Below are positions 1 to 42,116 of a stretch of DNA of 46,718 nt, piece by piece. The notes under the pieces are model-generated. The model searched no databases, was not told the origin of the DNA, and worked only from the letters and a program-made list of their open reading frames with translations. The stretch lies in contig JAQTOF010000002.1 of the NCBI GenBank assembly GCA_028713495.1, positions 1 through 46,718 on the forward strand. Direction: 5' to 3'. Position numbers and translations under genes: made by a program. How positions within the stretch are numbered: the stretch's first letter is position 1; the number at the start of each line of letters is the position of its first letter. The DNA comes from Candidatus Iainarchaeum sp. (GTDB taxonomy: Archaea > Micrarchaeota > Micrarchaeia > Anstonellales > Bilamarchaeaceae).

Positions 1-3000
1 TGAATATGCTGTTGGACATGTCCAGCACGAAGACACCGCTGTAGCTCTTGTTGACGTCCAGATCGCAGCTGTTGTTGTACATGATGTTGTCTGCCATGGT
101 GACGCCGTTGAAGCCCTGTATCCTGAGGCCGTAGCCGCCGTTGCTGAAGAGCCTGTTGGCGGTCAGGTTGATCGAGTAGTTGATTGTTGCGTCACCATAG
201 AGGTAGATAGCGTCGCCGCTGGTATTGTATATACTGTTGTTGGCCAGTGTGGTGTTGTAGGCGGTTTGGACGTGTATGGCACGGTTAGGCCAATTGAAGA
301 TGGTGTTGTTCGTCACGATGGTGCCGTTCGTCTGCGTGGTCAGCGTGATGCTGTAGTTGCTTGCCGTGGTGCCGCTGCCATCAATCGAGTTGTTGGCTAT
401 CGTGTTGTTGGTCGAGTACCGTAGGTATATCAGGCCTCGATAGATGTTGTTGCCGGAGAAGATGGTGTTGTTTGCGGTGTCCAGATAGAGGGCGTAGGGT
501 ATCGTTGTCGGGTTCGAGAACGTGCTGTTGGTTATCGTCGTGCCGTTCGACGTACCGATACTGATGGCATTGCTGGCGGAGGCGATGTCCGTTATCAGCA
601 GGCCGGAGATGGTGTTGTTGTTGGATGAGCTGCTGAGACTGATGAGCGTACCATTGACCATGCAGTTCGTCATGTTATTGCTGTTTGAACGGATGAGGAA
701 GAGCCCCCGTCCGCCGCTCCCGATAGTGAGCGACGTGTCGTTCAGGAGCGTGTTGAACGTGGAATCCGCTAATGTGAAGCCGGACTGGAAGGAGGTTGCA
801 CTGTTGCTATATACCGTGACGTTGGTGACGCTGGAGTAGTCGGCGTGATATAGATAGACGCCGGTCCCCGTGGTGCCGACGCTGTAGTTCCATATGCGCG
901 GGCAGTTCTGTATTGTTACGTTGTGGTAGGGGCTTGCGGCTGAGCCGTTCACAAAGATGGCCGTGGCGTTCACTGTGCCGAAGTTGTTGATTGAATAGCC
1001 GTTACAGTCATAGATGACATCGCTGGCCGTGATTTTCACGCAGACCTTGCCGCCGGCACCGAGTTCAGTGGCGTTATTCGGAGCGCCCACATAGTCGGCC
1101 CCCTGGATATAAGTGCCGCTGGAGGTTATTACCGGGCAGTTGTCGTTCTCCAGTATGCCATAGTCGGATGCAGGGTTCATGCCGGTGAGGGAAAGCTCGT
1201 GGTTGGTCGTGTCCGGGGTGCCGTTGAGCATTGTCCAGGTGCCGTTGTACTTCCACAGCTGGAACTTGGACTCGTTGTAGCCGCCTGCAGTGACTTCGTC
1301 ACCAGTCCAGCTCCAGACGATGCTGTCTATGGAGACCGTACTGCTGCCATTGGTGATGTTCACGAACTTCTGGGCGAAGCTGGGATACCCCGCTGGCAGG
1401 GCTGAGGAGTTCCTGGTCCAGTTGATGGAGTATATCTCCGCGTTGCTCGCGCCCAGACTGTCGTTTATGGACAGGTTGGTGTAGTTCTGCAGCGTGCCTG
1501 CCGGATTGAGGAACAGCGCGCGCGTCATATTGAGCGTCACCGCGCCGGTGCCATCAGCAGAGGCATAGACGTCGCCTTGGCTGTTGTTGAAGAAGATAGG
1601 ATCTATGAACGCAGCGGAAGCATTGTCCAGGTGCATGCCGTTGCCGGAGTTGTTGGCGGCTGTGATGTTGGTGAACGTGATGTTGACTGGCATGTAGCCC
1701 GCACCGGCGTAGGAAGAGACATGGATGCCATCACCGTTGCCTGTGAGTGTGGCATCGGTCACGCTGATGTTGTCCGAGCCGCCTATGTTAATGCCGTATT
1801 CCGTGTTGTTGAAGCCGGAGAGGTTGAGTATGACGCTGTTGGAACCGATCAGGACACCGTCGCTGTTATTGTACGCCGTGTTGTTCTCCATAGTGCTCTG
1901 GGACATCACGAATCCGTAGAGCCCGTTGTTGAAGGCGCTATTATTGACTATGAGACATCCGAGCTCTCCCTGGATGCCATAGTAACCATTGTTGTAGGCG
2001 AGATTGCCGGTCAGGTTGCTGGTCGGCGGGGAAGCGATACCGGCATTCGAGTTGTCATGGGCGGTGTTGTTGGTGAACACGAAGTATTGCGCCCAGTTGT
2101 TCATGCTGAACCCGTTAATATTGTCGTACGCCGTGTTGTTGGTGAGAGTGACCAGGATTATGTCCTTGTTTGGGGGGGGTGCACCGTCGGTGTCGAATCC
2201 GGCGCCATTGCCGCATGCGGTGTTGTTGATGAATGTTATGTTGCTTATCGGACCTGAGGATAGGGGGCCGCCGATGACGAATCCGGCGGCATTGCCGCAT
2301 GCTGTGTTGTTGACGAGCGTATGGTTACCTGCCTGCGTGCCAGTCAGTAGCCTGAACCCTGCACCGCTCGTGCCGTTGTTGTTGCTGGCGATGTTGTCGG
2401 CGATGTACCCGTCATGGGAGGCTGTTACCTGGAGGCCATCAGCGAAGTTGTCGCTGATATTATTCCCTATGACGCTGAAGTTGTACGACACGCCTAAGAT
2501 GTATAGGCCCGCGACCGTGGTGACACTGCCACCGTTATTGGTGATGGTGTTGTTGACGATTGAGAAATTGTGGCTTTTCAACGAGTATGCCATGCCGCCC
2601 TGATAGTTTCTGGTGGCTGTATTGTTGATGACGTTGGTGTGGTTGGAGACGTCGAAGTCGAAACCGATGGCGATGAGGCCCGTGTTGTTGTAGGCGATAT
2701 TGCTTATCACGTTGGTGTAGTCGCTTCCGAGCATGTAGAAGCCATTGGAACTGCAATTGGTGGCATTGTTGCTAGTCAGGTTGTTGTAGGGGCTGCTGAT
2801 GATACGGAAACCGTCGTCGCTCTGGCTGGCTAAATTAGCAGTGAGATTGTTGTTGCCGCCCCCTTCCACATAGATGCCATAGCCGCAGATGGTTGCGGTA
2901 TTTTCCACCACAGTATTGAGATTGCTGTTGAGCATGTAGATGCCGTAGCTGTCGAGGAAGCGGGTATTGCTGATATTATACGCACTATTATTGTATAACA

Positions 3001-6000
3001 TGCTGTCGTTGACCTCATTCAGATAGAAGCCTGCGACCGAGTTGTTGTACGCATTACTGCCATCTATCGTGACATTCACTGCCCTGAAGGCGTAGAAAGC
3101 GTAGTAATAGCTTTCGATGACATCAATATCCTGGATGGTGACATTGCCGGCAGGATTTGAGGAGGTACCGAAGACGCCGACGCCATAGGTGTAGTTGTTC
3201 TTGATCTGGCAGTTTTTCACAGTGACGTTGCTATTGGCTGATGCGTTGACGAATATGCCGTATGAGTTGTCAGTACCGTTGTTGGTGATGGTGTGGCCGT
3301 TGCAGTCCAGGCTCACATCCGGCGAAGCTACGACTATGCATGCCTTTGATAGCGTGGGCGCGGCGCTGAATGGCGCTCCGGTCGCGTCCGCTGAGAGCTG
3401 GTAGGCGCCAGGAGTATCTATCAGCAGGCAGTTTTCTGTGACATTGTTCTGTAGGATACCGTAATCTGATGCAGGATTCATGCCGGTGAGGCTGAGGGTG
3501 TTTGCTGAAGTGTCTGGAGTGCTATTGATCATCTCCCATTCCCCGGACATGTTGTACTTCCAGAGCTCGAACTTGGAATCGTCGTAGTAGGACTCTAGGG
3601 CGACGTCAGCATCCGTCCAATACCAGACTATGCTGTCTATGGAGACACCGGCCGTGAGATTGCTTATGTTCAAGAACTTCTGCTCGAATGAGAGGTAGTC
3701 GGTCGGCAGAGCCGACTCATTGCTGGTCCAGTTTATCGCGTAAGCTTCACTGGGAACCTCGAGAAGGTCAGTGAGGGAAAGGTTGGTGAAGTTCTGCGCG
3801 CTTCCGGCCCCGTCTTTGAACAGAACGTTGGTGAGGTAAAGAGTTACGTTTGCGCCGGTGCTGCGGTTGGCGACTAAAGAGTATTTGTTTCCGTATAATG
3901 TCGAGTCCACCAGACGGCTGCTGTTGCCCTTGAATGAGTAGAAGCCGTAATTGGAGTTGTTGTATATCGTGCAGGAAGTGAAATTGTTGTTGTTGACGTT
4001 CTGGAGGTGCACTCCGTGCCCGGCATTATCACGGATAGTGACATTCGTGAAGGAATTGCCTGTGGAGGCTGTGGACAACCATATGGCGCTTATGGAGGCG
4101 TTGGTGCTGTTATAGACCGTCTCATTGGCGGCTATAAGGTAGCTGGCAGCGGCCAGGACGATGCCGCTCTGGCTGCTGTGCCACACGTTGTTGGTCAGGT
4201 TGATATAAGAGCTGAAGGTTATCGCGAGAGCGTATTGCAGATTGTCGTAGGCCGTGTTGTTGTTGAGCCAGACGTCCTTGCTTATGTTAAGGAAAAAGCC
4301 GTGGTAAGAGCTATTGTAGACCGTGTTGTTCTGGATCAGGCTTCCGCCCGAAGCATTGACTGCCGCGATTCCGACGCCATATCCAGAGATGCTGGGGCAG
4401 TTTTTCACGGTGATATTCGTGTACGTGACGGCGGAGGAGCCGTTGATGAAGACCCCGATGGCATCCGCGGTCCCGTTATTCGTGATGGAATAGCCATTGC
4501 AGTCGAAGAGGACGTCCGAGGAAGCAATCATCACGCACGCGGCCGTCAGAGGAGGGACGCCTGAAATCGCGTTTGTGGCACCTACATAGTCGTTGTCCTG
4601 TAGGTATGCACCACTCTCGCTTAGGATCGGGCAGTTCTGATTCTCGAGTATGATGTAGTCCGAGGCGGGTTCCATATCGAAAAGGGTAAATGTGTGTGTG
4701 ACTGTATCAGGAGTGCCATTGAGCATGGTCCAGCCAGTGGAGTTGTACTTCCAAAGCTCGAATTTCGATTCGTCATATGTGGAACCGAGCTCATCAACGG
4801 TCCAGTGCCAGGTGATGCGGTCTATTGATGGCGTACCGGAAACCGTGGAGATATTCACGAATTTCTGGGTGAAAGAGACATAGCCGCTGGGGATAGATGA
4901 CGAGTTAAATGTCCAGTTGATTGTGTATTCCTGCCCTGATCCCGAGAGAGTGTCATTTATGTCCAAAACAGTGTAATTTTCTAAAGTGCCGGAGGGGTTG
5001 CGGAAAGTTGCATTGGTTATGTTAAGGACGGTGCCATATGCGCCAACGACATATACATCCCAGCCGTTGTTGTAGAGGGTATTGTTGAAAATGAGGCTTC
5101 GGTTGGCATTAATCACGCAGATTCCAGCGGTATTGTTATGGATAGTATTCTCCCGGATAGTGGTAGAACTGGCGTAGGCCCCATTTAATTCTATTCCTGC
5201 CCACGGCGTGGTAGCAAGCCCTCCCCTCCATCCATTATCGTAGATGGTGTTGTTGGTGAGGTTGTTGTATTGCCTCGTTATAATGAAACCCGAAATGCTG
5301 TTATTGTAGACTGTGTTGTTTTCAAAAACATTATAATCCGCGGGTGCGCCGCCGGCCGTTACAAAACCGTAGCCAGTAGCCGTATTTCCATTCCCGTGAA
5401 CCCGGTTCCCGTAAAACCGGCCCGAGGAGCCTGCAATGTAAACTCCATCTGCGTGGTTGTTGTATGAACTGCTGTTTATGAGGGAAATGTTATTGTCAGC
5501 AAGGTAGAATCCTGAGACATTATTGTTGTAAGAGCTGCAATTTGTGAAGCTGGCATCGAGATTGTTCCCGTTTCCGTAATAAACGACAAAACCATGGCCG
5601 TAATCCAAGGATGAATCGCCGTCTTGGCCGTAGGCGACATCGTCCTGGAACGTGTTGTAATCCGAGTAAGCGCTAACTAGGTATCCGTATTGGGTGTTGT
5701 TCGCGGCAGTGCAGTTGGTGATATTTATTCTTTTTGAACCGTGTATGAAAAACCCGCCATATGATAAGAATCCGATTTCGGTGTTTTTCATGGAAGTCGT
5801 GTTCTGGATTGTGACGTTTTCTGCGGATTCGATGTCAACTCCGATGTTATAGCCGTAAATCCTTGGGCAGTTCTTTATGGTGATGTTATGGTAGGCAAGT
5901 GTTGAATTGCCATCCGCATCAGTGCCGTTGACCATTATTCCTGCTGAAGGCGTATTGGCTCCGCTGTAAGTTATGTTGTAGCCGTTGCAGTCAAATACCA

Positions 6001-7735
6001 CGTCGGAAGAAGAGATGAGTATGCAGGAGTAGAGGGTAGCTGGGGGGACGGCGTAGTAATAAGCGCTGGATGCTGGATATGGGGCTCCGGCGACGTTTTG
6101 AGTGAGCGTATACGTTCCGGGATAGCTGATATTTGTGCACGCACTTACATCATGGATGTAATCGAATTCCGCATACCCTCCGGAATCGCCTAGGATCTCG
6201 AAGTCAAAAGTGTCTGTATCCGCTGAAAGGTTTTCCAGAGTTATGTAGGACCAGCCGCCTGAATCATTGAGAAGGCCGGAGGTTCCGAGAAGCGGGGAGG
6301 TTGTCCCGTTTGCATAGATGTTGAAGTAAACATTGTCCGCGCCTCCTTTCCTTGTATATACATCCACAACGCTTCCGTTGGTAAGGTTCTGCTCGAAAGT
6401 CGCACGGACGAAATCGCCGAGCGGAATCTGCTCAGACCAGTTGTCATCCTTATCTTTGACATATCCTGTGATATCAGAGATCAATCCGTAGCTGGAATCA
6501 AGATGCTCTACATAGCTGACGTTTATTTCACCTATTGAATAGTTCGAGAAACCGGAAACATCCATGGATGCCGTCCCGGTAGCCGGGTCGTAGATGAAAT
6601 TGGAGCATTCGCTTACGCATGGCTTACCGTTCCTCAACGGATAGGGCTGCCTGAGATGATTGAGACCGCGGAACTCAAGATGGGCAGAAGCATCGAACTG
6701 CGGATATGCGGCCGTATCGATGCCAAGCAGGTTCTGGGCGACTATGAATGCCTCAGAAAGATCAGCTTTTTGCACGCTGACCCTCAGCTCAGGATAGGTT
6801 ATGCTGCCCCCTTCGCCGTCGATCGTGAGGTTGGTGAAAAGGACATTGGTGAGGTTGCTGAAGAACGGACCGCCAGCCTTGCCATGTTCCCGCAGCTTGA
6901 GGAGGCCGGATGGTATCTCTTTGTCTGCCAGGTCCTTCAGCTTCAGGACTTTGCCTTCCTGGGCGCATTTGGAGGCTTCAAGGCCAGTGAGCTGACAGAA
7001 GCCAGGCACATCCTCAGGAGGTAAGTGCGTTTCATTGGGCCCCGTGAGAACATCAGGCCCGAAAGTCTCTGGTGGAGGTTCTGCCACATTTTCGGCAGGT
7101 TCGTCCTGGGGAACATCTTCAGGCTCCGGAGCTACATCGGTTTGCTCATCAGGTTGCTCTTCCCCAGGTGCATAGGTGCCTAAGCTGGCAGTGGTCATTA
7201 TCGTTATGGTCTCTCCATCTGCAGGGGCCCGCTCAAGTGCGATGATGGCCCATTCGCCCTCGCTTATCGAGATGATCGTGTAGAGGACATCCGAAGTAGT
7301 GCCGTCAGGAGCCACGAACTGTATGGCGAGGTTGGAGAAATCATATGCCAGCCCCTGCTGCCAGGATATCTCCAGGATGGAAGGGTCAGTATTTGATGTG
7401 AACTGTCCATCCACATCTGAAAGCACATTGAGGTCATACCCCCCTTCAGGGACAGATACGTTGACCAGGACCCACTGCCCTTCCTGCATGTCCACGATCT
7501 GGTAATCAGGATGGGAAGCCTCGCCGTTGGAGATTATCTCCAGGACCATGTCTGAGAAATCAGAGGCGAAACCCTCCATGTGGGTTATGTTTATGAGCTG
7601 TGAAACCGTGAAAAGGCTAAGGGTAATGAACATCAGGTTCATGGCAGGCGAAGGGCGAGAAGGCTGGCTACTTCGTGGTATGGGGATGAACCTGCTTGGA
7701 CTCATGGATGCACCGTCGCCTGTGCTAATCGGCAT
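1..7735 (-). CDS. Giant secreted surface protein, 3'-partial (>2,540 aa inside the window). It has an N-terminal domain, an acidic linker, and four right-handed parallel beta-helix (PbH1/NosD-like) units separated by a thrice-repeated ~135-aa module.
   Basis: Not in the supplied ORF track, because it has no stop inside the window. The reverse complement, read in the frame with codon first bases at positions = 1 mod 3, is stop-free from ATG 7735 down to position 2. In-frame alternative starts are ATG 7705 and ATG 7642 (MNLMFITLSLF...). The translation shows a hydrophobic N-terminus, a Pro/Glu-rich linker, repeated beta-helix rungs (NNT/NNS...G-x-Y/F) and four caps of the form SSDVxFDCNGYxI. 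It is paralogous to the N-terminus of 27677..31594. Confidence 0.85.
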   Translation of the reverse strand, partial: MPISTGDGASMSPSRFIPIPRSSQPSRPSPAMNLMFITLSLFTVSQLINITHMEGFASDFSDMVLEIISNGEASHPDYQIVDMQEGQWVLVNVSVPEGGYDLNVLSDVDGQFTSNTDPSILEISWQQGLAYDFSNLAIQFVAPDGTTSDVLYTIISISEGEWAIIALERAPADGETITIMTTASLGTYAPGEEQPDEQTDVAPEPEDVPQDEPAENVAEPPPETFGPDVLTGPNETHLPPEDVPGFCQLTGLEASKCAQEGKVLKLKDLADKEIPSGLLKLREHGKAGGPFFSNLTNVLFTNLTIDGEGGSITYPELRVSVQKADLSEAFIVAQNLLGIDTAAYPQFDASAHLEFRGLNHLRQPYPLRNGKPCVSECSNFIYDPATGTASMDVSGFSNYSIGEINVSYVEHLDSSYGLISDITGYVKDKDDNWSEQIPLGDFVRATFEQNLTNGSVVDVYTRKGGADNVYFNIYANGTTSPLLGTSGLLNDSGGWSYITLENLSADTDTFDFEILGDSGGYAEFDYIHDVSACTNISYPGTYTLTQNVAGAPYPASSAYYYAVPPATLYSCILISSSDVVFDCNGYNITYSGANTPSAGIMVNGTDADGNSTLAYHNITIKNCPRIYGYNIGVDIESAENVTIQNTTSMKNTEIGFLSYGGFFIHGSKRINITNCTAANNTQYGYLVSAYSDYNTFQDDVAYGQDGDSSLDYGHGFVVYYGNGNNLDASFTNCSSYNNNVSGFYLADNNISLINSSSYNNHADGVYIAGSSGRFYGNRVHGNGNTATGYGFVTAGGAPADYNVFENNTVYNNSISGFIITRQYNNLTNNTIYDNGWRGGLATTPWAGIELNGAYASSTTIRENTIHNNTAGICVINANRSLIFNNTLYNNGWDVYVVGAYGTVLNITNATFRNPSGTLENYTVLDINDTLSGSGQEYTINWTFNSSSIPSGYVSFTQKFVNISTVSGTPSIDRITWHWTVDELGSTYDESKFELWKYNSTGWTMLNGTPDTVTHTFTLFDMEPASDYIILENQNCPILSESGAYLQDNDYVGATNAISGVPPLTAACVMIASSDVLFDCNGYSITNNGTADAIGVFINGSSAVTYTNITVKNCPSISGYGVGIAAVNASGGSLIQNNTVYNSSYHGFFLNISKDVWLNNNTAYDNLQYALAITFSSYINLTNNVWHSSQSGIVLAAASYLIAANETVYNSTNASISAIWLSTASTGNSFTNVTIRDNAGHGVHLQNVNNNNFTSCTIYNNSNYGFYSFKGNSSRLVDSTLYGNKYSLVANRSTGANVTLYLTNVLFKDGAGSAQNFTNLSLTDLLEVPSEAYAINWTSNESALPTDYLSFEQKFLNISNLTAGVSIDSIVWYWTDADVALESYYDDSKFELWKYNMSGEWEMINSTPDTSANTLSLTGMNPASDYGILQNNVTENCLLIDTPGAYQLSADATGAPFSAAPTLSKACIVVASPDVSLDCNGHTITNNGTDNSYGIFVNASANSNVTVKNCQIKNNYTYGVGVFGTSSNPAGNVTIQDIDVIESYYYAFYAFRAVNVTIDGSNAYNNSVAGFYLNEVNDSMLYNNSAYNISNTRFLDSYGIYMLNSNLNTVVENTATICGYGIYVEGGGNNNLTANLASQSDDGFRIISSPYNNLTSNNATNCSSNGFYMLGSDYTNVISNIAYNNTGLIAIGFDFDVSNHTNVINNTATRNYQGGMAYSLKSHNFSIVNNTITNNGGSVTTVAGLYILGVSYNFSVIGNNISDNFADGLQVTASHDGYIADNIASNNNGTSGAGFRLLTGTQAGNHTLVNNTACGNAAGFVIGGPLSSGPISNITFINNTACGNGAGFDTDGAPPPNKDIILVTLTNNTAYDNINGFSMNNWAQYFVFTNNTAHDNSNAGIASPPTSNLTGNLAYNNGYYGIQGELGCLIVNNSAFNNGLYGFVMSQSTMENNTAYNNSDGVLIGSNSVILNLSGFNNTEYGINIGGSDNISVTDATLTGNGDGIHVSSYAGAGYMPVNITFTNITAANNSGNGMHLDNASAAFIDPIFFNNSQGDVYASADGTGAVTLNMTRALFLNPAGTLQNYTNLSINDSLGASNAEIYSINWTRNSSALPAGYPSFAQKFVNITNGSSTVSIDSIVWSWTGDEVTAGGYNESKFQLWKYNGTWTMLNGTPDTTNHELSLTGMNPASDYGILENDNCPVITSSGTYIQGADYVGAPNNATELGAGGKVCVKITASDVIYDCNGYSINNFGTVNATAIFVNGSAASPYHNVTIQNCPRIWNYSVGTTGTGVYLYHADYSSVTNVTVYSNSATSFQSGFTLADSTFNTLLNDTSLTIGSGGRGLFLIRSNSNNMTNCMVNGTLISLSSSSNNNTISGLLITDIASASNAISIGTSNGTTITNSTFSNPTTIPYALYLDTANNTIFSGNNIYRGLIYLRYSTNNTIANNSIDGSGTTASNYSITLTTQTNGTIVTNNTIFNWPNRAIHVQTAYNTTLANNSIYNTSGDAIYLYGDATINYSINLTANRLFSNGGYGLRIQGFNGVTMADNIMYNNSCDLDVNKSYSGVFVLDMSNSIF
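1133..1540 (-). repeat. Copy c of the ~135-aa inter-helix module in the giant ORF.
   Basis: Translation: ...LNMTRALFLNPAGTLQNYTNLSIND...INWTRNSSALPAGYPSFAQKFVNIT...SIDSIVWSWT...ESKFQLWKYNGTWTMLNGTPDT...SDYGILENDNCP. The boundaries are approximate. Confidence 0.75.
3426..3850 (-). repeat. Copy b of the ~135-aa inter-helix module in the giant ORF.
   Basis: Translation: ...LYLTNVLFKDGAGSAQNFTNLSLTD...INWTSNESALPTDYLSFEQKFLNIS...SIDSIVWYWT...DSKFELWKYNMSGEWEMINSTPDT...SDYGILQNNVTENC. The boundaries are approximate. Confidence 0.75.
4628..5030 (-). repeat. Copy a of the ~135-aa inter-helix module in the giant ORF.
   Basis: Translation: ...NITNATFRNPSGTLENYTVLDINDT...INWTFNSSSIPSGYVSFTQKFVNIS...SIDRITWHWT...ESKFELWKYNSTGWTMLNGTPDT...SDYIILENQNCP. 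The boundaries are approximate. Confidence 0.75.
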
Positions 7736-7765
7736 ACGCCGATAACGAATATATATCTTCCGCAT

Positions 7766-27676: not shown

Positions 27677-30600
27677 TTACTTCTTGCCCTTCTTCTCTGG
27701 CGGCTTGGCCTTCTTGCCACCCTGGCTTCTCCAGTAGAGCACTGCGAGGATTATCAGGGCCAGCAGCAACAGCAGGAACAGCAATGTGGTCCCTGCATCA
27801 GGAGCCGCTGTCGGCTTCTCGGGCTCGACCGGAGCGCTCTTGGGGAAAGCCTTGACTTCTATGGTCTTTATCGGCTGGCCATCCTTGAACAGGGTCACGG
27901 TGTAGGTGCCCTCAATGCCAAGCGGGACCTGGAAGTTGCCGTCCTCGTCGCTCTTGCCACTGGATGTCTTGCCAGCCGGGTCAGTGATCTGGTAGTCGCA
28001 GCTCACACATGGCTGTTCTCCGTCCCTGGCAGTGCAGGTCGTCGCCTCTCCGACCACGCCTGTGGTCGGGCAGGTCACATCGCCGCTCTTGCACTCACGG
28101 TTGACACAGGATTCACCCTGTGGGCAGCCTGGGCATCCTGTCTCGGAGCCGCATGCGTATGATACCCATACGTGGTTGTCTGCATAGCCGCACTGGCCAG
28201 GCACATTCTCGCAGGTGCCTCCAGCAGCACCGGCCGCTATGGCGCAGTATTCTGTGCCTTTGCAGTCAGCGTCGGTAACGCACTCGGGCTGTTCTGGCTT
28301 GGTGCAGGTGTGGTCCACGCACGTCTCGCCCTGTGCGCAGTCTGAGTCAGCGCAGCAGTCATATGCGCACATGCATTGGCTGTTTTCGCACTGCTGGTCT
28401 GTACCGCAGGCAGGCGTGCATTCCGGTTCACCGATGCATTGGCCATCGATGCACTGTTGGCCCGCTGTGCATTCAGGCACGCAGCCGGTCGGAACACAGT
28501 CGCAGGAATCCAGCATGGTGCTGCTCATCTCACCGGCATCATAACCGCCAGCGTTGGCTGTTATATATACTGCCTGGCCGCAGTCTTCGAAGGTGAACTG
28601 GCCAGCCGCATCGGCATAGCCAGCATCCACGATCGATCCTGCTGCGTTTATCACCGTTACATGGGCGCCGGCCACAGGTCCGTGTTCTCCTGTGACAGTC
28701 ACCGTATTCTCATTGCAGTTGCTATCGAGGCTTATGTGTAGCCTGGGCTCTCCGCCATCCTCCCCGCACTGCAGAGGCGCAGCGAAGAGGCCGTATATGC
28801 CCATGGCGGGGCTGTCCATGAAGGGCAGTATGGCAGGAGGGATCTGCCAGTATGGGGTCAGCTCCTGGACGCTTATCGTGTCGTCGCCCCAGGTCTGGTC
28901 TTCGAGATACGTCCAGTTGCCGGAGACGTTTATGTAGTACGTATCACCCGGCTCGGGTTCATCGCTTGTATTGACTTCTGAGCCCTGGAGATAGTAAAGT
29001 GCTATGCTCTCGCCGTCATAACACTCCGAAGGCGTCCACCATGCTGCGAATTCGTCAAGTACTGCGGCGGGTGGAGCCGAGAGGGCGTCATCTGCATAAT
29101 TGCTGACCAGCATGAGGTACTGGTTCTGGTAGGATGACAAGCCTTCGGGGTTCTTCCAGTCGAACTTTATGTCGACATTGTAGGTGTCGCAGAAGTCACA
29201 CCAGCCGTTTTCGTTCACATCCAAGCATTCTCTCGCCCCAAAGAGGTCTTCAGGAGGGAATTGGTACCAGTCGCAGATAGAATCACTGCCTGCGGTCTTT
29301 ACCCCGCCTACCCATTTGTACATATCATCGCAGGTCATATCCTGGTAATCCTTGCATTTCTGAGCTTCTGGATCGCAGTCCGTGCTGGTGCACTCATGGC
29401 CGCCCAGGTAATCCTGGTATTGCAGTCTCTGGATGGTCGGTATGTTGGTATCGCTCAGCAAGAACGATTCGCCGTTGGCTATGTCGTTATCCTGCAATGA
29501 AATCGTCATACCGTTCTGTGAGCCGATTTTGGTATGGTTCATCTGCCAGAGTGCAGTCGGAGCAGTGAAGGTGCCTGGGAAGAACAGGTCTAGGAGTTCA
29601 GACACGAGGGACGTCCCCTGGAGATACTCGGTCCAGAGCACTCCTTCAGGCCCGTGGTGTGCCAGAATGTTTGCGATGGTTTGCCACTGCGAAGCCGCAA
29701 AACCACCACTGAGAAGATTGAACAGCTCAGTTGCATCTTTCCCGTTATCATATATCATCGAATCCGTCACATTGGCGCCTTGTTTAGATGCGTCTATGAC
29801 TCCGAATATCCTGTTCTCGAATATGTATGAGTTGATTATCTGCGGTGTGGTAGGTGAGCCAGGCGTCACAATCACGGTCTCGAAGCCGCTCGAGAATCCT
29901 GGTGGAGGGGGCGGGGGAGGTGGAGGGGACTCTGAGCCCTGGCCAAGCAGCGCAATACCGTAGGCGTTGTTGTATATCCGGACGTTATTGTACGTATTCG
30001 CATAGGATATCGCAGAGAATGCACGCGCGGTAGTGTAATCCAATACGCCGAAGCCGAGCGGGATATCGCTCCAATCGAAGGACCTGACGCCCTTGCCGCC
30101 ATCGAAACCGAACATGCCGACCAGTTCCGAGAGGTTCCCGTAGTTATTATAGGATGAAAGATCCTTGAGGACGGTGCCGCCCGAACCAGCGAGCATATAG
30201 CCTGCGACAAGGTTGTTGTACGCGCTTCCGCGGGTTATGTTGCTCTGTATGCTGTCGTAGAGCCAGAAACCGACCGCATTATCGTGCGACACTGAGTCTG
30301 TTATCGTAGTGCGCGGGCTCCCTATGATCACCGCGCCATTGTTACCCAACGTGTCAGAGCCATCCACAGTCACCCTGTCGAGGACCGAGTCTGACGCATT
30401 GCACAGGATGATACCGGAATAGGTTCCGACCGGAACGGTCGTGGTGCTGTTAGCGAAATATATCGGACGACCGCCAGAACCGATCGTGCGCTCTATCGAG
30501 TTCTGGCAGACTAGCGGATCGAATTGCGCTGTGAAGATTCCGAAAGGACCGCCTTCCCAGATGTTCTGGCCGCCGACGAACAGGTCGGCGAACAGGTTCT

Positions 30601-31594
30601 CCTGGGCCGTGTTGTCCGTCAGGACGTTGTTATAGCTCTGGACATTTATGCCGATCAGGTTGTAGTTGGCCTTGTTGTTGGAGAAATTGATGCGTGAATC
30701 TGCGAGCTCGCTGCCCAAGTAGAATCCGTTGCCGTTATTGTGTTCGGCGATGTTGTCGGTCACGTAAGTGGTCGGGTCTATGGCAGCGCCGCCATATGCT
30801 GTGCGTGCGCCTATTACGATGATGATGCCCGGACGTGTAATTGTGAAACCTGCATGGTTCGGGCCCTGGAGCGAATTGTAGCGGGCGGTGTTGTTGGTTA
30901 CATTGTTGGCTACGCCGTTTATGACAAAGCCTGAAGAGGAGCAGTTGTATGCTGTGTTCTCCTTGAAGAGCATGAAGCTGGCATCATTGGTCTCGTAACC
31001 GGTCTGGTCGCTGAACTGCGCGTTGTTCCCGGTCACGTTGACCTCGCTAACACCGGTAGTGAAGTAGAAACCGCTCTTTGAGACTCCGTTGACATCGTTG
31101 CCTGAAACCGTGCTGACCGAGCCAGCGAAGAAAATGCCCATGTTGTAATTGGTCACAGAACCGTAACCTATCCGGTTATTGCTGATATTGCCGTTCTTGC
31201 CACCGAAAGAGATGGCGGTGGTGTCGGAGGTAGAGGTCCCTTCAGGGATGGAGATATTGTTGTTCGTTATAGCCACGAACTTGTTTTTACCGACAGAGAT
31301 GCCGATTTCGAAATTGTACAGCTTGCAGTTCTTCACTGTTATGTTGTCATAGCCATCTTCTAAGAGAATGGCGGTATTGTAATCCGTGCTGTTGGAGTCG
31401 TTTATGTAAAAGCCCTGGCAGTCGAACACCACATCAGAGCTGTTGATGTAGATACAATCAGGGTCGGCTCCGATGTCGACGATATTGCCGGGAAGAGTGA
31501 CTGTGCCCGGAGCATTTATGTCCGTGCAGCCAGCCGCCGCGAATCCAAATCCACCCAAAAGAACCGCCACGAGCAGCAAGATGTAGAATTTCAT
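27677..31594 (-). CDS. Large secreted mosaic surface protein: parallel beta-helix repeats, poly-Pro hinge, Cys-rich modules, beta-sandwich, C-terminal TM anchor.
   Basis: In the ORF track (1305 aa). The signal/lipobox-like N-terminus ends in FAAAGC. The cap SSDVVFDCQGFYI is paralogous to the giant ORF. It has beta-helix rungs, SESPPPPPPPPPGF, a C-terminal ~230 aa with dense Cys spacing, a carboxypeptidase-regulatory-like segment (DEDGNFQVPLGIEGTYTVTL), a TM helix and a KKAKPPEKKGKK tail. Confidence 0.85.
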   Translation of the reverse strand: MKFYILLLVAVLLGGFGFAAAGCTDINAPGTVTLPGNIVDIGADPDCIYINSSDVVFDCQGFYINDSNSTDYNTAILLEDGYDNITVKNCKLYNFEIGISVGKNKFVAITNNNISIPEGTSTSDTTAISFGGKNGNISNNRIGYGSVTNYNMGIFFAGSVSTVSGNDVNGVSKSGFYFTTGVSEVNVTGNNAQFSDQTGYETNDASFMLFKENTAYNCSSSGFVINGVANNVTNNTARYNSLQGPNHAGFTITRPGIIIVIGARTAYGGAAIDPTTYVTDNIAEHNNGNGFYLGSELADSRINFSNNKANYNLIGINVQSYNNVLTDNTAQENLFADLFVGGQNIWEGGPFGIFTAQFDPLVCQNSIERTIGSGGRPIYFANSTTTVPVGTYSGIILCNASDSVLDRVTVDGSDTLGNNGAVIIGSPRTTITDSVSHDNAVGFWLYDSIQSNITRGSAYNNLVAGYMLAGSGGTVLKDLSSYNNYGNLSELVGMFGFDGGKGVRSFDWSDIPLGFGVLDYTTARAFSAISYANTYNNVRIYNNAYGIALLGQGSESPPPPPPPPPGFSSGFETVIVTPGSPTTPQIINSYIFENRIFGVIDASKQGANVTDSMIYDNGKDATELFNLLSGGFAASQWQTIANILAHHGPEGVLWTEYLQGTSLVSELLDLFFPGTFTAPTALWQMNHTKIGSQNGMTISLQDNDIANGESFLLSDTNIPTIQRLQYQDYLGGHECTSTDCDPEAQKCKDYQDMTCDDMYKWVGGVKTAGSDSICDWYQFPPEDLFGARECLDVNENGWCDFCDTYNVDIKFDWKNPEGLSSYQNQYLMLVSNYADDALSAPPAAVLDEFAAWWTPSECYDGESIALYYLQGSEVNTSDEPEPGDTYYINVSGNWTYLEDQTWGDDTISVQELTPYWQIPPAILPFMDSPAMGIYGLFAAPLQCGEDGGEPRLHISLDSNCNENTVTVTGEHGPVAGAHVTVINAAGSIVDAGYADAAGQFTFEDCGQAVYITANAGGYDAGEMSSTMLDSCDCVPTGCVPECTAGQQCIDGQCIGEPECTPACGTDQQCENSQCMCAYDCCADSDCAQGETCVDHTCTKPEQPECVTDADCKGTEYCAIAAGAAGGTCENVPGQCGYADNHVWVSYACGSETGCPGCPQGESCVNRECKSGDVTCPTTGVVGEATTCTARDGEQPCVSCDYQITDPAGKTSSGKSDEDGNFQVPLGIEGTYTVTLFKDGQPIKTIEVKAFPKSAPVEPEKPTAAPDAGTTLLFLLLLLALIILAVLYWRSQGGKKAKPPEKKGKK

Positions 31595-31617: not shown

Positions 31618-31681
31618 TTTAAAAATATTGGGGTGGCGCCCTGCGGCCTTGGATTGCCGTAGGGAAGGAGCGGTTATAAAA
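31618..31681. promoter_or_regulatory. Bidirectional promoter region between the two divergent Cys-rich surface protein genes.
   Basis: tttaaaaatatt (31618-31629) lies ~29 nt from the minus-strand ATG 31594. ttataaaa (31674-31681) lies ~33 nt from the plus-strand ATG 31711. This spacing is typical for archaeal TATA boxes with (near-)leaderless mRNAs. Confidence 0.45.
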
Positions 31682-31710: not shown

Positions 31711-33393
31711 ATGGCGGATATAGCCGAAAAGGCGATGGATCTGCCCGCGAAAGCGGGATGTATTAAGGAATTTTTTCTTGGTCTGCTCTTAGGTGGCTTT
31801 GTGCTTTTCCTGCTGTTCTTCTTCGCTGGCCAGCAGTGCGGCACATGCACTGGCACGGACAACGTGAAAGAGTTTTTCAGCAATCAGAGCTCTTCCAGCA
31901 GTACGACCACGATCATAAGGGGAAGCGACGGCCAACTGCTGGCGCTCCGCCCTGACAGCCCTGGCGAGAGGACGACTTACACAGACAATGGAGGGAAAAC
32001 CAAGGATGTCATATGTTACACCGCGCTATACTGCGTCGAGGAGTGCCCAAACTGCACCAAGACCTGCGATGGTGAATGCGTCCAGGAGAACGCGAGATGC
32101 GGCTATGGCACAGGCACCCTCACAGCGCTGGTGCCCAACCAATCTGTCTTCTATGGAAACTGCTGCGAAGACATGGCATGCCTGGATGGTTATTGTAAGA
32201 GGAACCAGTGCGTAGAGGATGGGAACCTCTGTGGTGGCGGACCGACCGGAAATTACAATATGGTCGCCAACAACCCGGCTTATTACGGCGAATGCTGCGG
32301 CAACTCGCAGTGCATAGACGGCTACTGCACACCGCCTGAGCAGGAATGCATGCCCGAGGGAGAGACCTGCGGATATGGACATATGACTATCACAGCGCTG
32401 GTGCCTGCGAACGCCACGTTCCTGGGAACCTGCTGCGGTGACCTGGCATGCATAAACGGCCAGTGCACTGAAAGGACAGAATGCAGCGACAGAGGAGATT
32501 TCTGCGGTTATGGACCGACCACATACAGCAACTACCAGACGCCGACGTATTACGGCGAGTGCTGCGGGGATTACCAATGCCTGAACGGCTACTGCACCCC
32601 ATCCACGCAGACCTGTGTCAAGACAGGCGGGACCTGCGGCTATGGACAGTACACCACGGTTGGCACCCCCAACGCTAACTACTATGGCACCTGCTGCGAA
32701 GGCGACTCCTGCATAGACGGCAGATGCACGCCTGAGACCGGCTGCAGCGGACAGGGAGAGACCTGCGCGGTCGGACAGATAAACTGCTGCGACGGGTTCA
32801 TGTGCTCTGATGGCATATGCGTGACGCAATGCATGGACACGGGCGAGAAGTGCAGCTACGACAATGACTGCTGCGAAGGCTACTGCAGCGACGGCGTATG
32901 CACCACCCAGTGCATAGAAGCGGTTGGCGCGTCCTGTTGGCCAGGCGTGAGGGAGTGCTGCCAAGGCATGACCTGCAGTAACGGCAGATGCACAGAACCG
33001 TGCAAGAAGACCGGCGCTACGTGCAGCGCAGATAGTGAATGCTGCGACAACTATTACTGCAACGACGGCTATTGCGCTGAAGAGCAGAGCTGTCAGACTT
33101 CTGGCTCCTGCTCTAGCAGCTCGGACTGCTGCAAAGGATATTACTGCAGCGACAACGGATACTGCGCACCTGAGACAGGACCCAGCGGCTGCACGGACAG
33201 CGACGGCTCAGACTACTACAATGCCGGATATGTGACCGGCTACTTTGACGCCGTCTATGGCACCTATGACGACTACTGCGCGGATGATTCGCATGTGGTG
33301 GAATATACATGCTCAGCCACCTCGAACGAGGTAGTCGCCCAGCAGATAAGCTGCCCGGCCGGATGTTCTGCTGGCGCCTGCTACATGCCATAG
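31711..33393 (+). CDS. Membrane-anchored protein carrying ten tandem six-cysteine (C-C-CC-C-C, knottin-framework) modules.
   Basis: In the ORF track (560 aa). N-terminal TM helix (FFLGLLLGGFVLFLLFFFAG). There are five ~44-aa modules and five ~28-33-aa modules with invariant Cys spacing. The C-terminal 67-aa motif is CTDSDG..DYY..G...G......Y.DYC......EY.C. Confidence 0.85.
   Translation: MADIAEKAMDLPAKAGCIKEFFLGLLLGGFVLFLLFFFAGQQCGTCTGTDNVKEFFSNQSSSSSTTTIIRGSDGQLLALRPDSPGERTTYTDNGGKTKDVICYTALYCVEECPNCTKTCDGECVQENARCGYGTGTLTALVPNQSVFYGNCCEDMACLDGYCKRNQCVEDGNLCGGGPTGNYNMVANNPAYYGECCGNSQCIDGYCTPPEQECMPEGETCGYGHMTITALVPANATFLGTCCGDLACINGQCTERTECSDRGDFCGYGPTTYSNYQTPTYYGECCGDYQCLNGYCTPSTQTCVKTGGTCGYGQYTTVGTPNANYYGTCCEGDSCIDGRCTPETGCSGQGETCAVGQINCCDGFMCSDGICVTQCMDTGEKCSYDNDCCEGYCSDGVCTTQCIEAVGASCWPGVRECCQGMTCSNGRCTEPCKKTGATCSADSECCDNYYCNDGYCAEEQSCQTSGSCSSSSDCCKGYYCSDNGYCAPETGPSGCTDSDGSDYYNAGYVTGYFDAVYGTYDDYCADDSHVVEYTCSATSNEVVAQQISCPAGCSAGACYMP
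32077..33189 (+). repeat. Tandem array of ten six-cysteine modules (protein residues 123-493 of 31711..33393).
   Basis: Five long units have C-x6-C-x18/20-CC-x4-C-x4-C (residues 123-344). Five short units have C-x5/7-C-x5/6-CC-x3/4-C-x4/5-C (residues 345-493). I counted these residue by residue from the translation. Confidence 0.85.
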
Positions 33394-33395
33394 GT

Positions 33396-33422
33396 CTTTT
33401 ATTTTTCTTTTATTATTCTTTC
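33396..33422 (+). terminator. Oligo-T terminator after the knottin-array gene.
   Basis: cttttatttttcttttattattctttc directly follows the TAG stop (33391-33393). Confidence 0.5.
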
Positions 33423-33496
33423 ACGGCGGACAGCTCGAGACATTTAAATATGTTTGTAATCAATATCCATCCTGCAACTTCTATAGAGGTATAATC

Positions 33497-42014: not shown

Positions 42015-42116
42015 CCCGTCGTAGCTCAACGGTAGAGCGGCCGGCTGTAGTTTTGGTTTGCTCGATTCTTACGAGTGGATACCGGCAGGTTGCTTGTTCA
42101 AATCAGGCCGACGGGA
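42015..42116 (+). tRNA. tRNA-Tyr (anticodon GTA at 42047-42049) with a 30-nt intron (42051-42080) at the canonical 37/38 position. CCA is not encoded.
   Basis: Folded by hand. Acceptor stem CCCGTCG/CGACGGG with C1:G72. D arm GCTC-AACGGTA-GAGC. Anticodon stem GCCGG/CCGGC with loop CT-GTA-G[intron]A. Variable loop AGGTT. T arm GCTTG-TTCAAAT-CAGGC. Discriminator A. A TTTT run follows, and a TATA box lies about 29 nt upstream. Confidence 0.85.

Follow-up and report, generated by a model that had tools for sequence, protein, structure and literature searches.

A predicted membrane-anchored array of ten knottin-type modules and its protein family in Micrarchaeota

The window analysed here, a 46,718-nucleotide stretch of Candidatus Iainarchaeum sp. 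(assembly GCA_028713495.1, contig JAQTOF010000002.1, positions 1 to 46,718), carries on its forward strand a complete gene for a 560-amino acid Cys-rich protein, hereafter called the array protein (Table 1). An archaeal source had been assumed in a first-pass annotation made from the sequence alone, and all 10 close genome matches were indeed to Micrarchaeota or Bilamarchaeaceae. The protein contains 74 Cys residues (13% of its length). A regular expression for six-Cys modules (C-x3-9-C-x3-30-CC-x2-6-C-x3-8-C) located ten back-to-back C-C-CC-C-C units, five long ones followed by five short ones. Ten consecutive units had been proposed at residues 123-493; their number was reproduced, whereas the array was found to end at residue 485. 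In 2000 residue shuffles of the same protein a mean of 0.36 modules was obtained, with a maximum of 4, which places the array far above chance. No further six-Cys module was found in any other open reading frame (ORF) or reading frame of the window, and no DNA-level tandem repeat was found. Based upon the comparisons described below, the protein is very probably a surface-exposed array of knottin-type modules.

The array protein opens with a short N-terminal tail, after which comes its single hydrophobic helix. The segment at about residues 15-44 was the only Kyte-Doolittle window above 1.6 in the protein, and AlphaFold2 modelled a helix at residues 16-39 with predicted local distance difference test (pLDDT) values of up to 90, in agreement with the transmembrane helix of the first-pass annotation. 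This helix, conserved in the homologues, is predicted to act as a signal-anchor or uncleaved signal peptide; some distant relatives seem, by eye, to have a lipobox-like LLGC instead. The CxxC motif just outside the membrane and the low-complexity Ser/Thr linker that follows it were poorly conserved and modelled with pLDDT below 50. Next comes a conserved juxtamembrane domain that had been overlooked at first pass, with five further Cys residues (C102, C108, C112, C115 and C119) clustered at its end. Across 30 homologues G74, G85, D92, G95, C102, Y107 and C108 of this domain are invariant, and most homologues carry a conserved N-x-S/T sequon at its start, suggestive of surface exposure. AlphaFold2 placed beta strands at residues 86-110 with low confidence. 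A profile search found no other carriers of the domain outside the family, and it had no Pfam match.

In the array protein the long units follow the pattern C-x6-C-x18-20-CC-x4-C-x4-C, with a second loop of the form GYG...YYG, and the short units follow C-x5-7-C-x5-6-CC-x3-4-C-x4-5-C. A C-x6-C-GYG pattern had been described for all five long units; it holds, except that the second unit has GGG in place of GYG. Units are separated by linkers of 3-6 residues, and the array is capped, as had been proposed, by a 67-residue C-terminal domain containing six Cys residues (C-x-D-S-D-G-x-D-Y-Y ... D-Y-C ... E-Y-x-C ... C-x3-C-x4-C). The ectodomain as a whole has a calculated isoelectric point of 4.05, with 65 Asp and Glu residues against 20 Lys and Arg residues, and contains 39 Tyr residues.

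Table 1 Features of the array protein, its gene and the surrounding window (TRF, Tandem Repeats Finder)
Feature	Residues	Position (nt)	Strand	Basis
Complete gene of the 560-aa predicted cysteine-knot array protein, stop codon included		31711..33393	+	ORF listing, ATG start
TATA-box-like element TTATAAAA, ~30 nt 5' of the ATG (putative promoter)		31674..31681	+	Read from sequence
T-rich tract directly 3' of the stop codon (putative terminator)		33395..33425	+	Sequence; TRF row 33395-33421
Short N-terminal tail and single hydrophobic helix	1-40	31711..31830	+	Kyte-Doolittle, AlphaFold2
CxxC just outside the membrane, then low-complexity Ser/Thr linker	41-68	31831..31914	+	Sequence
CxxC directly after the membrane helix	43-46	31837-31848		
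Conserved juxtamembrane domain ending in Cys cluster	69-122	31915..32076	+	
CxxxCxxCxxxCxxxC cluster before the first unit	108-123	32032-32079		
Long modules L1-L5	123-162, 167-206, 213-252, 258-295, 302-339	32077-32196, 32209-32328, 32347-32466, 32482-32595, 32614-32727 (span 32077..32727)	+	Regular expression
Short modules s1-s5	345-370, 374-397, 401-427, 431-455, 461-485	32743-32820, 32830-32901, 32911-32991, 33001-33075, 33091-33165 (span 32743..33165)	+	Regular expression
C-terminal six-Cys all-beta domain, 67 aa	494-560	33190..33390	+	AlphaFold2
Giant ORF, at least 2588 aa, running off the left window end		2-7765	-	Beta_helix E 3.9e-84
Probable surface protein, 340 aa		7766-8788	-	
Probable surface protein, 578 aa		8795-10531	-	
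1305-aa protein, divergent from the array gene		27677-31594	-	
tRNA, probably intron-containing		42015-42116	+	Rfam, 54.5 bits

The assignment to knottins was supported by profile comparisons with proteins of solved structure. A profile built from 91 non-redundant short modules gave 93 matches at E<=1 when searched against all PDB sequences, and the 60 listed were almost all inhibitor cystine knot (ICK) peptides, comprising spider, cone-snail and remipede toxins together with plant alstotides and wrightides. The best matches were Xt3a (7rz3, E 4.7e-8), Aca toxin 1 (3.7e-6) and cyriotoxin-1a (3.1e-5), with huwentoxin/hainantoxin also present; omega- and delta-conotoxins, alstotides and wrightides followed at E 0.003-0.05, and the cysteine-rich domain 1 (CRD1) of Dickkopf-4 matched at E 4.6e-4. 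Searched singly against Pfam, 65 of the 91 modules matched Toxin_12, 56 matched Dickkopf_N, and many matched conotoxin families. The long modules gave weak matches only, again to ICK families. A relationship to EGF or granulin repeats, which the first-pass annotation had set against a cystine knot, did not emerge: granulin was matched by one of the 91 modules (E 0.067) and EGF by none, and the whole query had no EGF or granulin match at E<=1.

The whole query fell below every Pfam and NCBIfam threshold, and no Toxin_12 (PF07740) match to it was found at E<=1, the gathering score for that family being 21 bits. This cut-off was passed by the relatives P0055 (36.2 bits), P0054 (31.8), P0079 (27.7) and P0102 (44.6); P0055 and P0054 are archaeal, and the P0055 cluster includes a Bilamarchaeaceae protein. 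Automated annotation already catches the similarity, in that PF07740 is precomputed for P0032, P0036, P0039, P0041 and P0042 and one relative has been named a 'dickkopf-related protein'. Within the array protein, modules s1-s5 each scored 27-41 bits against the family module profile. The six-Cys C-C-CC-C-C order and the loop lengths of the ten query modules, and of 432 modules found across the family, lie within the knottin consensus, with the exception of loop 2 of the long modules (12-30 residues). The earlier fit of the five short units to the knottin/ICK consensus is thereby upheld, both by loop lengths and by profile matches to solved ICK toxins. Conotoxins of framework VI/VII normally have I-IV, II-V, III-VI disulfide connectivity, and we infer knotted connectivity of this type for the modules.

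A structural model of the whole protein was predicted with AlphaFold2 from a 30-sequence alignment. Mean pLDDT was 66.8, with values of 75-87 for the short modules and about 65-75 for the cores of the long modules. Every module was modelled with a terminal beta-hairpin that includes Cys V and Cys VI; in s2, s4 and s5 the CC pair is preceded by a short helical turn. When the model was compared with the PDB using Foldseek, a check suggested at first pass, the best local matches were indeed knottins, although none was significant; the highest-probability rows (template-modelling score TMt 0.64-0.79) were EETI-II (probability 0.95, TMt 0.72), squash inhibitors, Jingzhaotoxin-XI (TMt 0.79, root-mean-square deviation 1.3) and Aptotoxin VII.

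The one indirect line of evidence on disulfide pairing came from relatives of the module among the proteins retrieved with the module profile. By inspection of matches aligned to the hidden Markov model, tandem four-Cys modules (C-x5-C-x4-5-C-x4-C) were recognized in P0103, P0192 and P0101, with about 10-20 copies in P0103 and P0192. These align to the knot module and lack exactly Cys I and Cys IV, the pattern expected if Cys I and Cys IV are partners. The four-Cys module may be related to the knot as a hairpin with two disulfides, and it recalls the two-disulfide 'disulfide-directed hairpin' that has been proposed as the core of ICK peptides. A contingency test, based on the regular expression, of whether Cys I and Cys IV are lost together was discarded, being contaminated by out-of-register matches across neighbouring modules.

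The array protein belongs to a family of about 44 members. The 43 full-length homologues are 457-756 amino acids long and share 25-82% identity with the query, and those with a named source originate from Candidatus Micrarchaeota or Bilamarchaeaceae, except for one record labelled only 'bacterium'. When each GTDB species was represented by one genome and scanned with an alignment of 7 sequences, 11 loci were identified: 10 in Micrarchaeota-type metagenome-assembled genomes (MAGs) and one weak Myxococcales match. The genome-scan matches include the complete genome of Candidatus Fermentimicrarchaeum limneticum. The gene was single-copy where seen, and no relatives were found on viral contigs. 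Almost all of the genome matches and of the named members of the family are thus from Micrarchaeota; arrays of the short module are not unique to archaea.

The regular expression identified 432 modules in the 44 family proteins (278 short and 154 long), with 2-13 modules per protein. Loops of the short modules are 5-7, 4-6, 0, 3-4 and 4-5 residues long. The long modules share this framework and differ in loop 2 alone, which has 12-30 residues and is framed by CGYGP and YYGxCC. Alignment of the two module types with HHalign gave a probability of 96.7% (E 3.7e-10), the difference between them being an insertion in loop 2; on this comparison the long modules are homologous to the short ones and carry a loop 2 insertion. 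Linkers are 2-6 residues long in 356 of the 386 junctions across the family. Modules within the array protein share only 16-50% non-Cys identity with one another. When they are compared with those of a 52%-identical homologue, similarity is clearly higher for orthologous pairs than for non-orthologous ones. It follows that the array is old and that each position is individually maintained, and, as judged from these identities, it is not a recent repeat expansion.

These observations bear on whether the protein could be a polyprotein precursor, whose linkers would be cleaved so that ten separate knottin peptides are set free to act as toxins, antimicrobials or signals. Such a role is hardly credible. 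The modules do resemble toxins, and tandem knottins in one precursor are known from plants (TIPTOP, cyclotide type), but the modules here are conserved individually by position rather than homogenised, the linkers of the query are T/P/E/Q-rich by eye, and the 2-6-residue linkers of the family showed no conserved cleavage motif. The membrane anchor and the conserved non-knot domains at both ends of the array also argue against release, and no linked peptidase or maturation gene was found at the loci compared.

Conservation along the protein was assessed in the close clade, to which all of the following non-Cys identities refer. The long modules are the most conserved (0.55-0.77, with L4 at 0.77 and L5 at 0.73), followed by values of 0.52 for the juxtamembrane domain and 0.47-0.58 for the short modules. 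Low-complexity inserts of 40-50 residues occur in loop 2 of L2 in P0004 and P0006-P0014. That such inserts are tolerated makes loop 2 of L2, by these alignments, a likely exposed and insertion-tolerant site. The same figures are relevant to a passive stalk or spacer, in which a degradation-resistant rod would span the envelope and position the juxtamembrane or tip domain, or prop a surface layer, with no binding of its own. A spacer would account for the short linkers and stable fold, for the variation in module number and order among relatives (2 to 13) and for the moderate conservation of the short modules, and arrays of small disulfide domains such as EGF repeats act as spacers in eukaryotic surface proteins. 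However, orthologues keep the identity of each module at its own position, the long-module loops are conserved better than any other non-Cys sequence of the protein, beyond what a spacer would require, and the tip domain that a spacer would present is lost in P0007-P0014. We consider a purely passive role improbable.

The C-terminal domain was modelled separately by AlphaFold2 on its own alignment as five strands with high confidence (pLDDT 94.2, predicted template-modelling score 0.80). Despite this confident model, no structural match was found in the PDB or BFVD, and neither a PDB-sequence nor a Pfam match was found. The start of the domain, C-x-D-S-D-G-x-D-Y-Y, could be read by eye as an acidic cation-binding loop. 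Most relatives carry the domain once, and P0030, P0037 and P0040 carry 3-4 copies. A word-indexed search with the domain retrieved 9 small proteins only. P0047-P0052 (139-148 amino acids) have a membrane helix at each end, or at the N-terminus alone, and one C-x-D-S-D-G-G...E-Y-Y-C...C-P-N-G-C domain, so that the C-terminal domain also exists as a stand-alone surface module.

Overall, a membrane-anchored knottin rod serving as a multivalent adhesin or receptor is the best explanation, one that we hold with confidence evenly divided between acceptance and doubt. The single N-terminal helix would hold the protein in the membrane, and everything after about residue 41 would lie outside the cell. 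From the membrane outward, the ectodomain would comprise the Ser/Thr linker, the juxtamembrane domain, ten disulfide-stabilised knots and the small beta tip domain with three disulfides. Each knot would be a rigid unit, expected to resist proteases, and ten knots joined by linkers of 3-6 residues would form a semi-rigid, strongly acidic rod. Its length, estimated from typical knottin dimensions, would be a few tens of nanometres. The Tyr/Gly-rich loops of 18-20 residues between Cys II and Cys III, together with the tip domain, are the proposed binding surfaces, through which the protein might contact a partner cell, its glycans or the extracellular matrix. Micrarchaeota depend on cell-cell contact with hosts. 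Constraint on the long loops and the position-wise maintenance of the array favour binding or adhesion over an inert spacer; taken by itself, a binding or adhesion role is advanced tentatively, with confidence somewhat below even.

Knots displayed on the surface could instead act as a tethered multi-headed inhibitor, all or some of them blocking an extracellular protease, enzyme or channel of the host or of competitors in the manner of squash knottins, Kazal domains and spider toxins, with the anchor keeping this shield at the cell surface. Inhibitors are classically built on the knottin fold, squash trypsin inhibitors are among the best structural matches, and one module matches the Pfam family Squash (E 4.3e-4). 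P0130, which joins three Kazal protease-inhibitor domains to knots, and P0043, with segments that look Kazal-like by eye, are possible hints in the same direction, but neither the query nor most family members contain Kazal domains, and the Kazal reading of P0043 was not borne out by Pfam at E<=1. When the module sequences were read by eye, loop 1 was found to lack a canonical reactive-site motif such as P-[KR]-I-L and to contain the structural Gly instead, and the strongest conservation falls in the long loop 2, for which known inhibitors offer no equivalent. An inhibitory function is therefore considered unlikely.

Several observations weigh against an adhesive knottin rod. The AlphaFold2 models may simply reproduce knottin geometry learned in training, and in the Foldseek comparison with the PDB all E-values were 0.95 or worse. 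The long-module loop 2 regions, the proposed binding sites, were modelled with pLDDT below 50. The C-terminal tip domain is the least conserved part of the protein (0.28), in part because P0007-P0014 replace it with another knot, and in these proteins the tip is dispensable. N-glycosylation sequons are not enriched above expectation (0.71 per 100 amino acids, against 0.81 predicted by composition), and no conserved operon or gene neighbourhood was found across the P0002, P0013 and P0015 loci. The MAG names of close relatives point to sediment and subsurface samples; if these habitats are anoxic, extracellular disulfides may not form there. The number of Cys residues in the ectodomain is odd (73), as a consequence of extra Cys residues outside the modules, which vary from 3 to 5 among homologues; the odd extra Cys could form an intermolecular disulfide or a metal site.

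The last two of these points raise the question of a thiol-rich metal or redox protein, in which Cys residues kept reduced in anoxic habitats would bind Fe, Zn or Cu or buffer redox. The Cys content and very acidic ectodomain would suit such a function, as would the CxxC following the membrane helix and the CxxxCxxCxxxCxxxC cluster that precedes the first knot. Cys spacing is nevertheless invariant in the 432 modules and fits the knottin framework rather than the CxC/CxxC of metallothioneins, AlphaFold2 gives compact hairpin modules, and the metallothionein model Metallothio_6 was matched by only one of the 91 modules (E 0.007). Metallothioneins, moreover, largely lack aromatic residues, whereas the array protein is rich in Tyr. 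A metal or redox role thus appears very unlikely.

The surroundings of the array gene were analysed for signals and context. The element TTATAAAA is a putative archaeal promoter, implying a leaderless or short-leader transcript, and the T-rich tract after the gene is a putative archaeal terminator; both calls follow from the usual form of such archaeal elements. With its own TATA-like element and T-rich tract, the gene therefore looks monocistronic on sequence grounds. A minus-strand shadow ORF across it (32026..32964) was without support and was set aside. Archaeal housekeeping genes in the window encode carbamoyl-phosphate synthase, carbamoyltransferase, ribosomal proteins S10 and L10 and an aIF-2B family protein. 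P0002, the homologue closest to the query (70% identity), is encoded, as the array protein is, between the carbamoyltransferase gene and rpS10. That locus lacks the 1305-amino acid beta-helix gene that adjoins the array gene here, and the genes for the more distant homologues P0013 and P0015 have unrelated neighbours. As the neighbours differ among homologues, gene context gives no functional clue.

The array gene is located in a region with other large surface proteins. The divergent 1305-amino acid protein has a signal peptide, a beta-helix/NosD region, CarboxypepD_reg, a Cys-rich region and a C-terminal membrane anchor. Its gene looks like an insertion, since it is absent at the same position in the genome of the closest relative (L001). 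The Cys-rich region was considered as a relative of the knots and rejected as unrelated, as the module profiles do not detect it. At the left end of the window, the giant ORF encodes a right-handed beta-helix/NosD-type repeat protein, of a type typical for large DPANN surface proteins, and accounts for the pronounced GC and AT skew over the first 6 kb. Next to it are two probable surface proteins, one with 4.7 N-x-S/T sequons per 100 amino acids, a signal peptide and a C-terminal anchor (340 amino acids), the other with a weak CW_binding_2 match and a C-terminal anchor (578 amino acids). The tRNA detected by Rfam spans 102 nt, had no match with ARAGORN and is probably an intron-containing archaeal tRNA.

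The short module is distributed far more widely than the full-length family. When the short-module profile was run exhaustively with HMMER against 1.84 billion cluster representatives, 1263 protein clusters were matched at E<=1e-3, 205 of them at E<=1e-10. Among these are Myxococcota/Polyangiales proteins that have lipoprotein-like signals and as many as 29 modules, proteins with an N-terminus resembling a twin-arginine translocation (Tat) signal, an insect protein and further archaeal-looking proteins. Several of these wider matches pass the Pfam cut-offs for Toxin_12 or Dickkopf_N. In P0130 (1040 amino acids), three Kazal domains (PF07648, E 7.6e-17) are fused to knot modules of both types, long and short, and to the C-terminal domain seen in the array protein. 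Kazal-like segments seen by eye in P0043 (607 amino acids) were not reported by Pfam. P0062 (886 amino acids) and P0081 (828 amino acids) carry 18-19 short knot modules; their N-termini (…QTSVEYMITLAVVLL and …GATDYLLLVAVVLL), considered by eye as archaeal class III (pilin-type) signals, likewise found no confirmation in Pfam.

The 2017 paper on the KNOTTIN database describes the knottin fold as absent from archaea, and bacterial knottins as lacking experimental structures (PMC5753296), and among archaeal PDB chains PredSTP detected no peptides of this kind (PMC4491269). In the literature searched, no paper linking knottins to DPANN, Micrarchaeota or Myxococcota was found, in agreement with the first-pass statement that such arrays were not a described family. 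If the modules are true cystine knots, this would be, as far as we have found, the first knottin family described in Archaea. It would also contain by far the longest natural knottin concatemers noted in this analysis, with ten modules here and up to 29 in bacterial relatives. We further propose, as a speculation that we think more doubtful than not, that knottins are native to prokaryotic surfaces, the lineage-specific long-loop knottin of Micrarchaeota being a loop-display scaffold for host recognition and the short-module arrays of more than a thousand protein clusters, with Myxococcota and further archaeal proteins among them, a large, largely undescribed and maybe ancestral prokaryotic counterpart of the toxin fold of animals and plants. 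If true, the reported absence of knottins from archaea would no longer hold. The family, if its modules are true cystine knots, would also provide a concrete candidate for the poorly understood cell-surface interaction machinery of DPANN archaea. On the same condition it would offer a natural knottin variant that tolerates loop 2 inserts of 18-50 residues, useful in that knottins serve as engineering scaffolds, and would raise the question of how, or whether, low-oxygen organisms oxidise about 36 extracellular disulfides in one protein.

Several known systems resemble the array protein in part. ICK peptides, namely Toxin_12/huwentoxin-type spider toxins, omega- and delta-conotoxins of framework VI/VII and squash inhibitors, share the framework C-x5-7-C-x4-6-CC-x3-4-C-x4-5-C and conserved Gly positions, and in the model the predicted C-terminal hairpin superposes locally on theirs, at E-values that are not significant. 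Known ICK knottins, however, are single secreted peptides of about 25-40 amino acids that are cut from a propeptide in animals, plants and fungi, whereas here ten modules are fused in a 560-amino acid membrane-anchored archaeal protein, and half of them have an 18-20-residue loop 2 that was not found in the solved knottins matched. Tandem ICK modules within one chain occur in double-knot toxins and 'SCREPs' such as DkTx, Hi1a and Xt3a, and both modules of Xt3a were aligned. These toxins differ in being soluble venom proteins of two modules, with neither a membrane anchor nor extra domains. They act bivalently on ion channels, and in a survey tandem ICK proteins are regarded as venom toxins with two domains (PMC6262176).

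A parallel in architecture is found in bacterial arrays (for example the Myxococcota/Polyangiales lipoproteins P0053, P0064 and P0199, and Tat-signal proteins), in which the same short module is repeated in tandem up to 29 times. By eye, these bacterial proteins have lipoprotein- or Tat-type N-terminal signals instead. An extended loop 2 is also present in modules of several other matches of the short-module search, whereas GYG...YYG long modules and the juxtamembrane and C-terminal domains were seen only in Micrarchaeota-type relatives. A resemblance to Dickkopf CRD1 (PF04706) lies in the second half of that profile (positions 25-50), which aligns with one short module; the query reached 14.7 bits (E 0.041) over those positions only, below the cut-off of 25 bits, and P0042 reached 37.1 bits by spanning two adjacent modules. 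The name 'dickkopf-related protein' was given by the Prokaryotic Genome Annotation Pipeline to a Bilamarchaeaceae relative. The Dickkopf domain has 10 Cys residues in 51 amino acids; the array protein has no colipase-type CRD2 and its organism no Wnt context.

Wheat germ agglutinin (WGA) and other hevein arrays likewise consist of tandem small disulfide-rich modules of the knottin fold class, and WGA binds glycans multivalently via exposed aromatic residues. Hevein domains differ in having eight Cys residues and another framework. WGA was the top-ranked Foldseek row, yet a poor one (template-modelling score 0.13, root-mean-square deviation 17), and no module matched Pfam Chitin_bind_1. The 'CysRRep' repeat of a 2026 bioRxiv preprint was rejected as unrelated, its Cys pattern (Cx6-9Cx5-7Cx8-11Cx7-8CC) being different. 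Set against all of these systems, the array places a known fold in a domain of life that is new for it, and both its architecture and its long-loop module are new.

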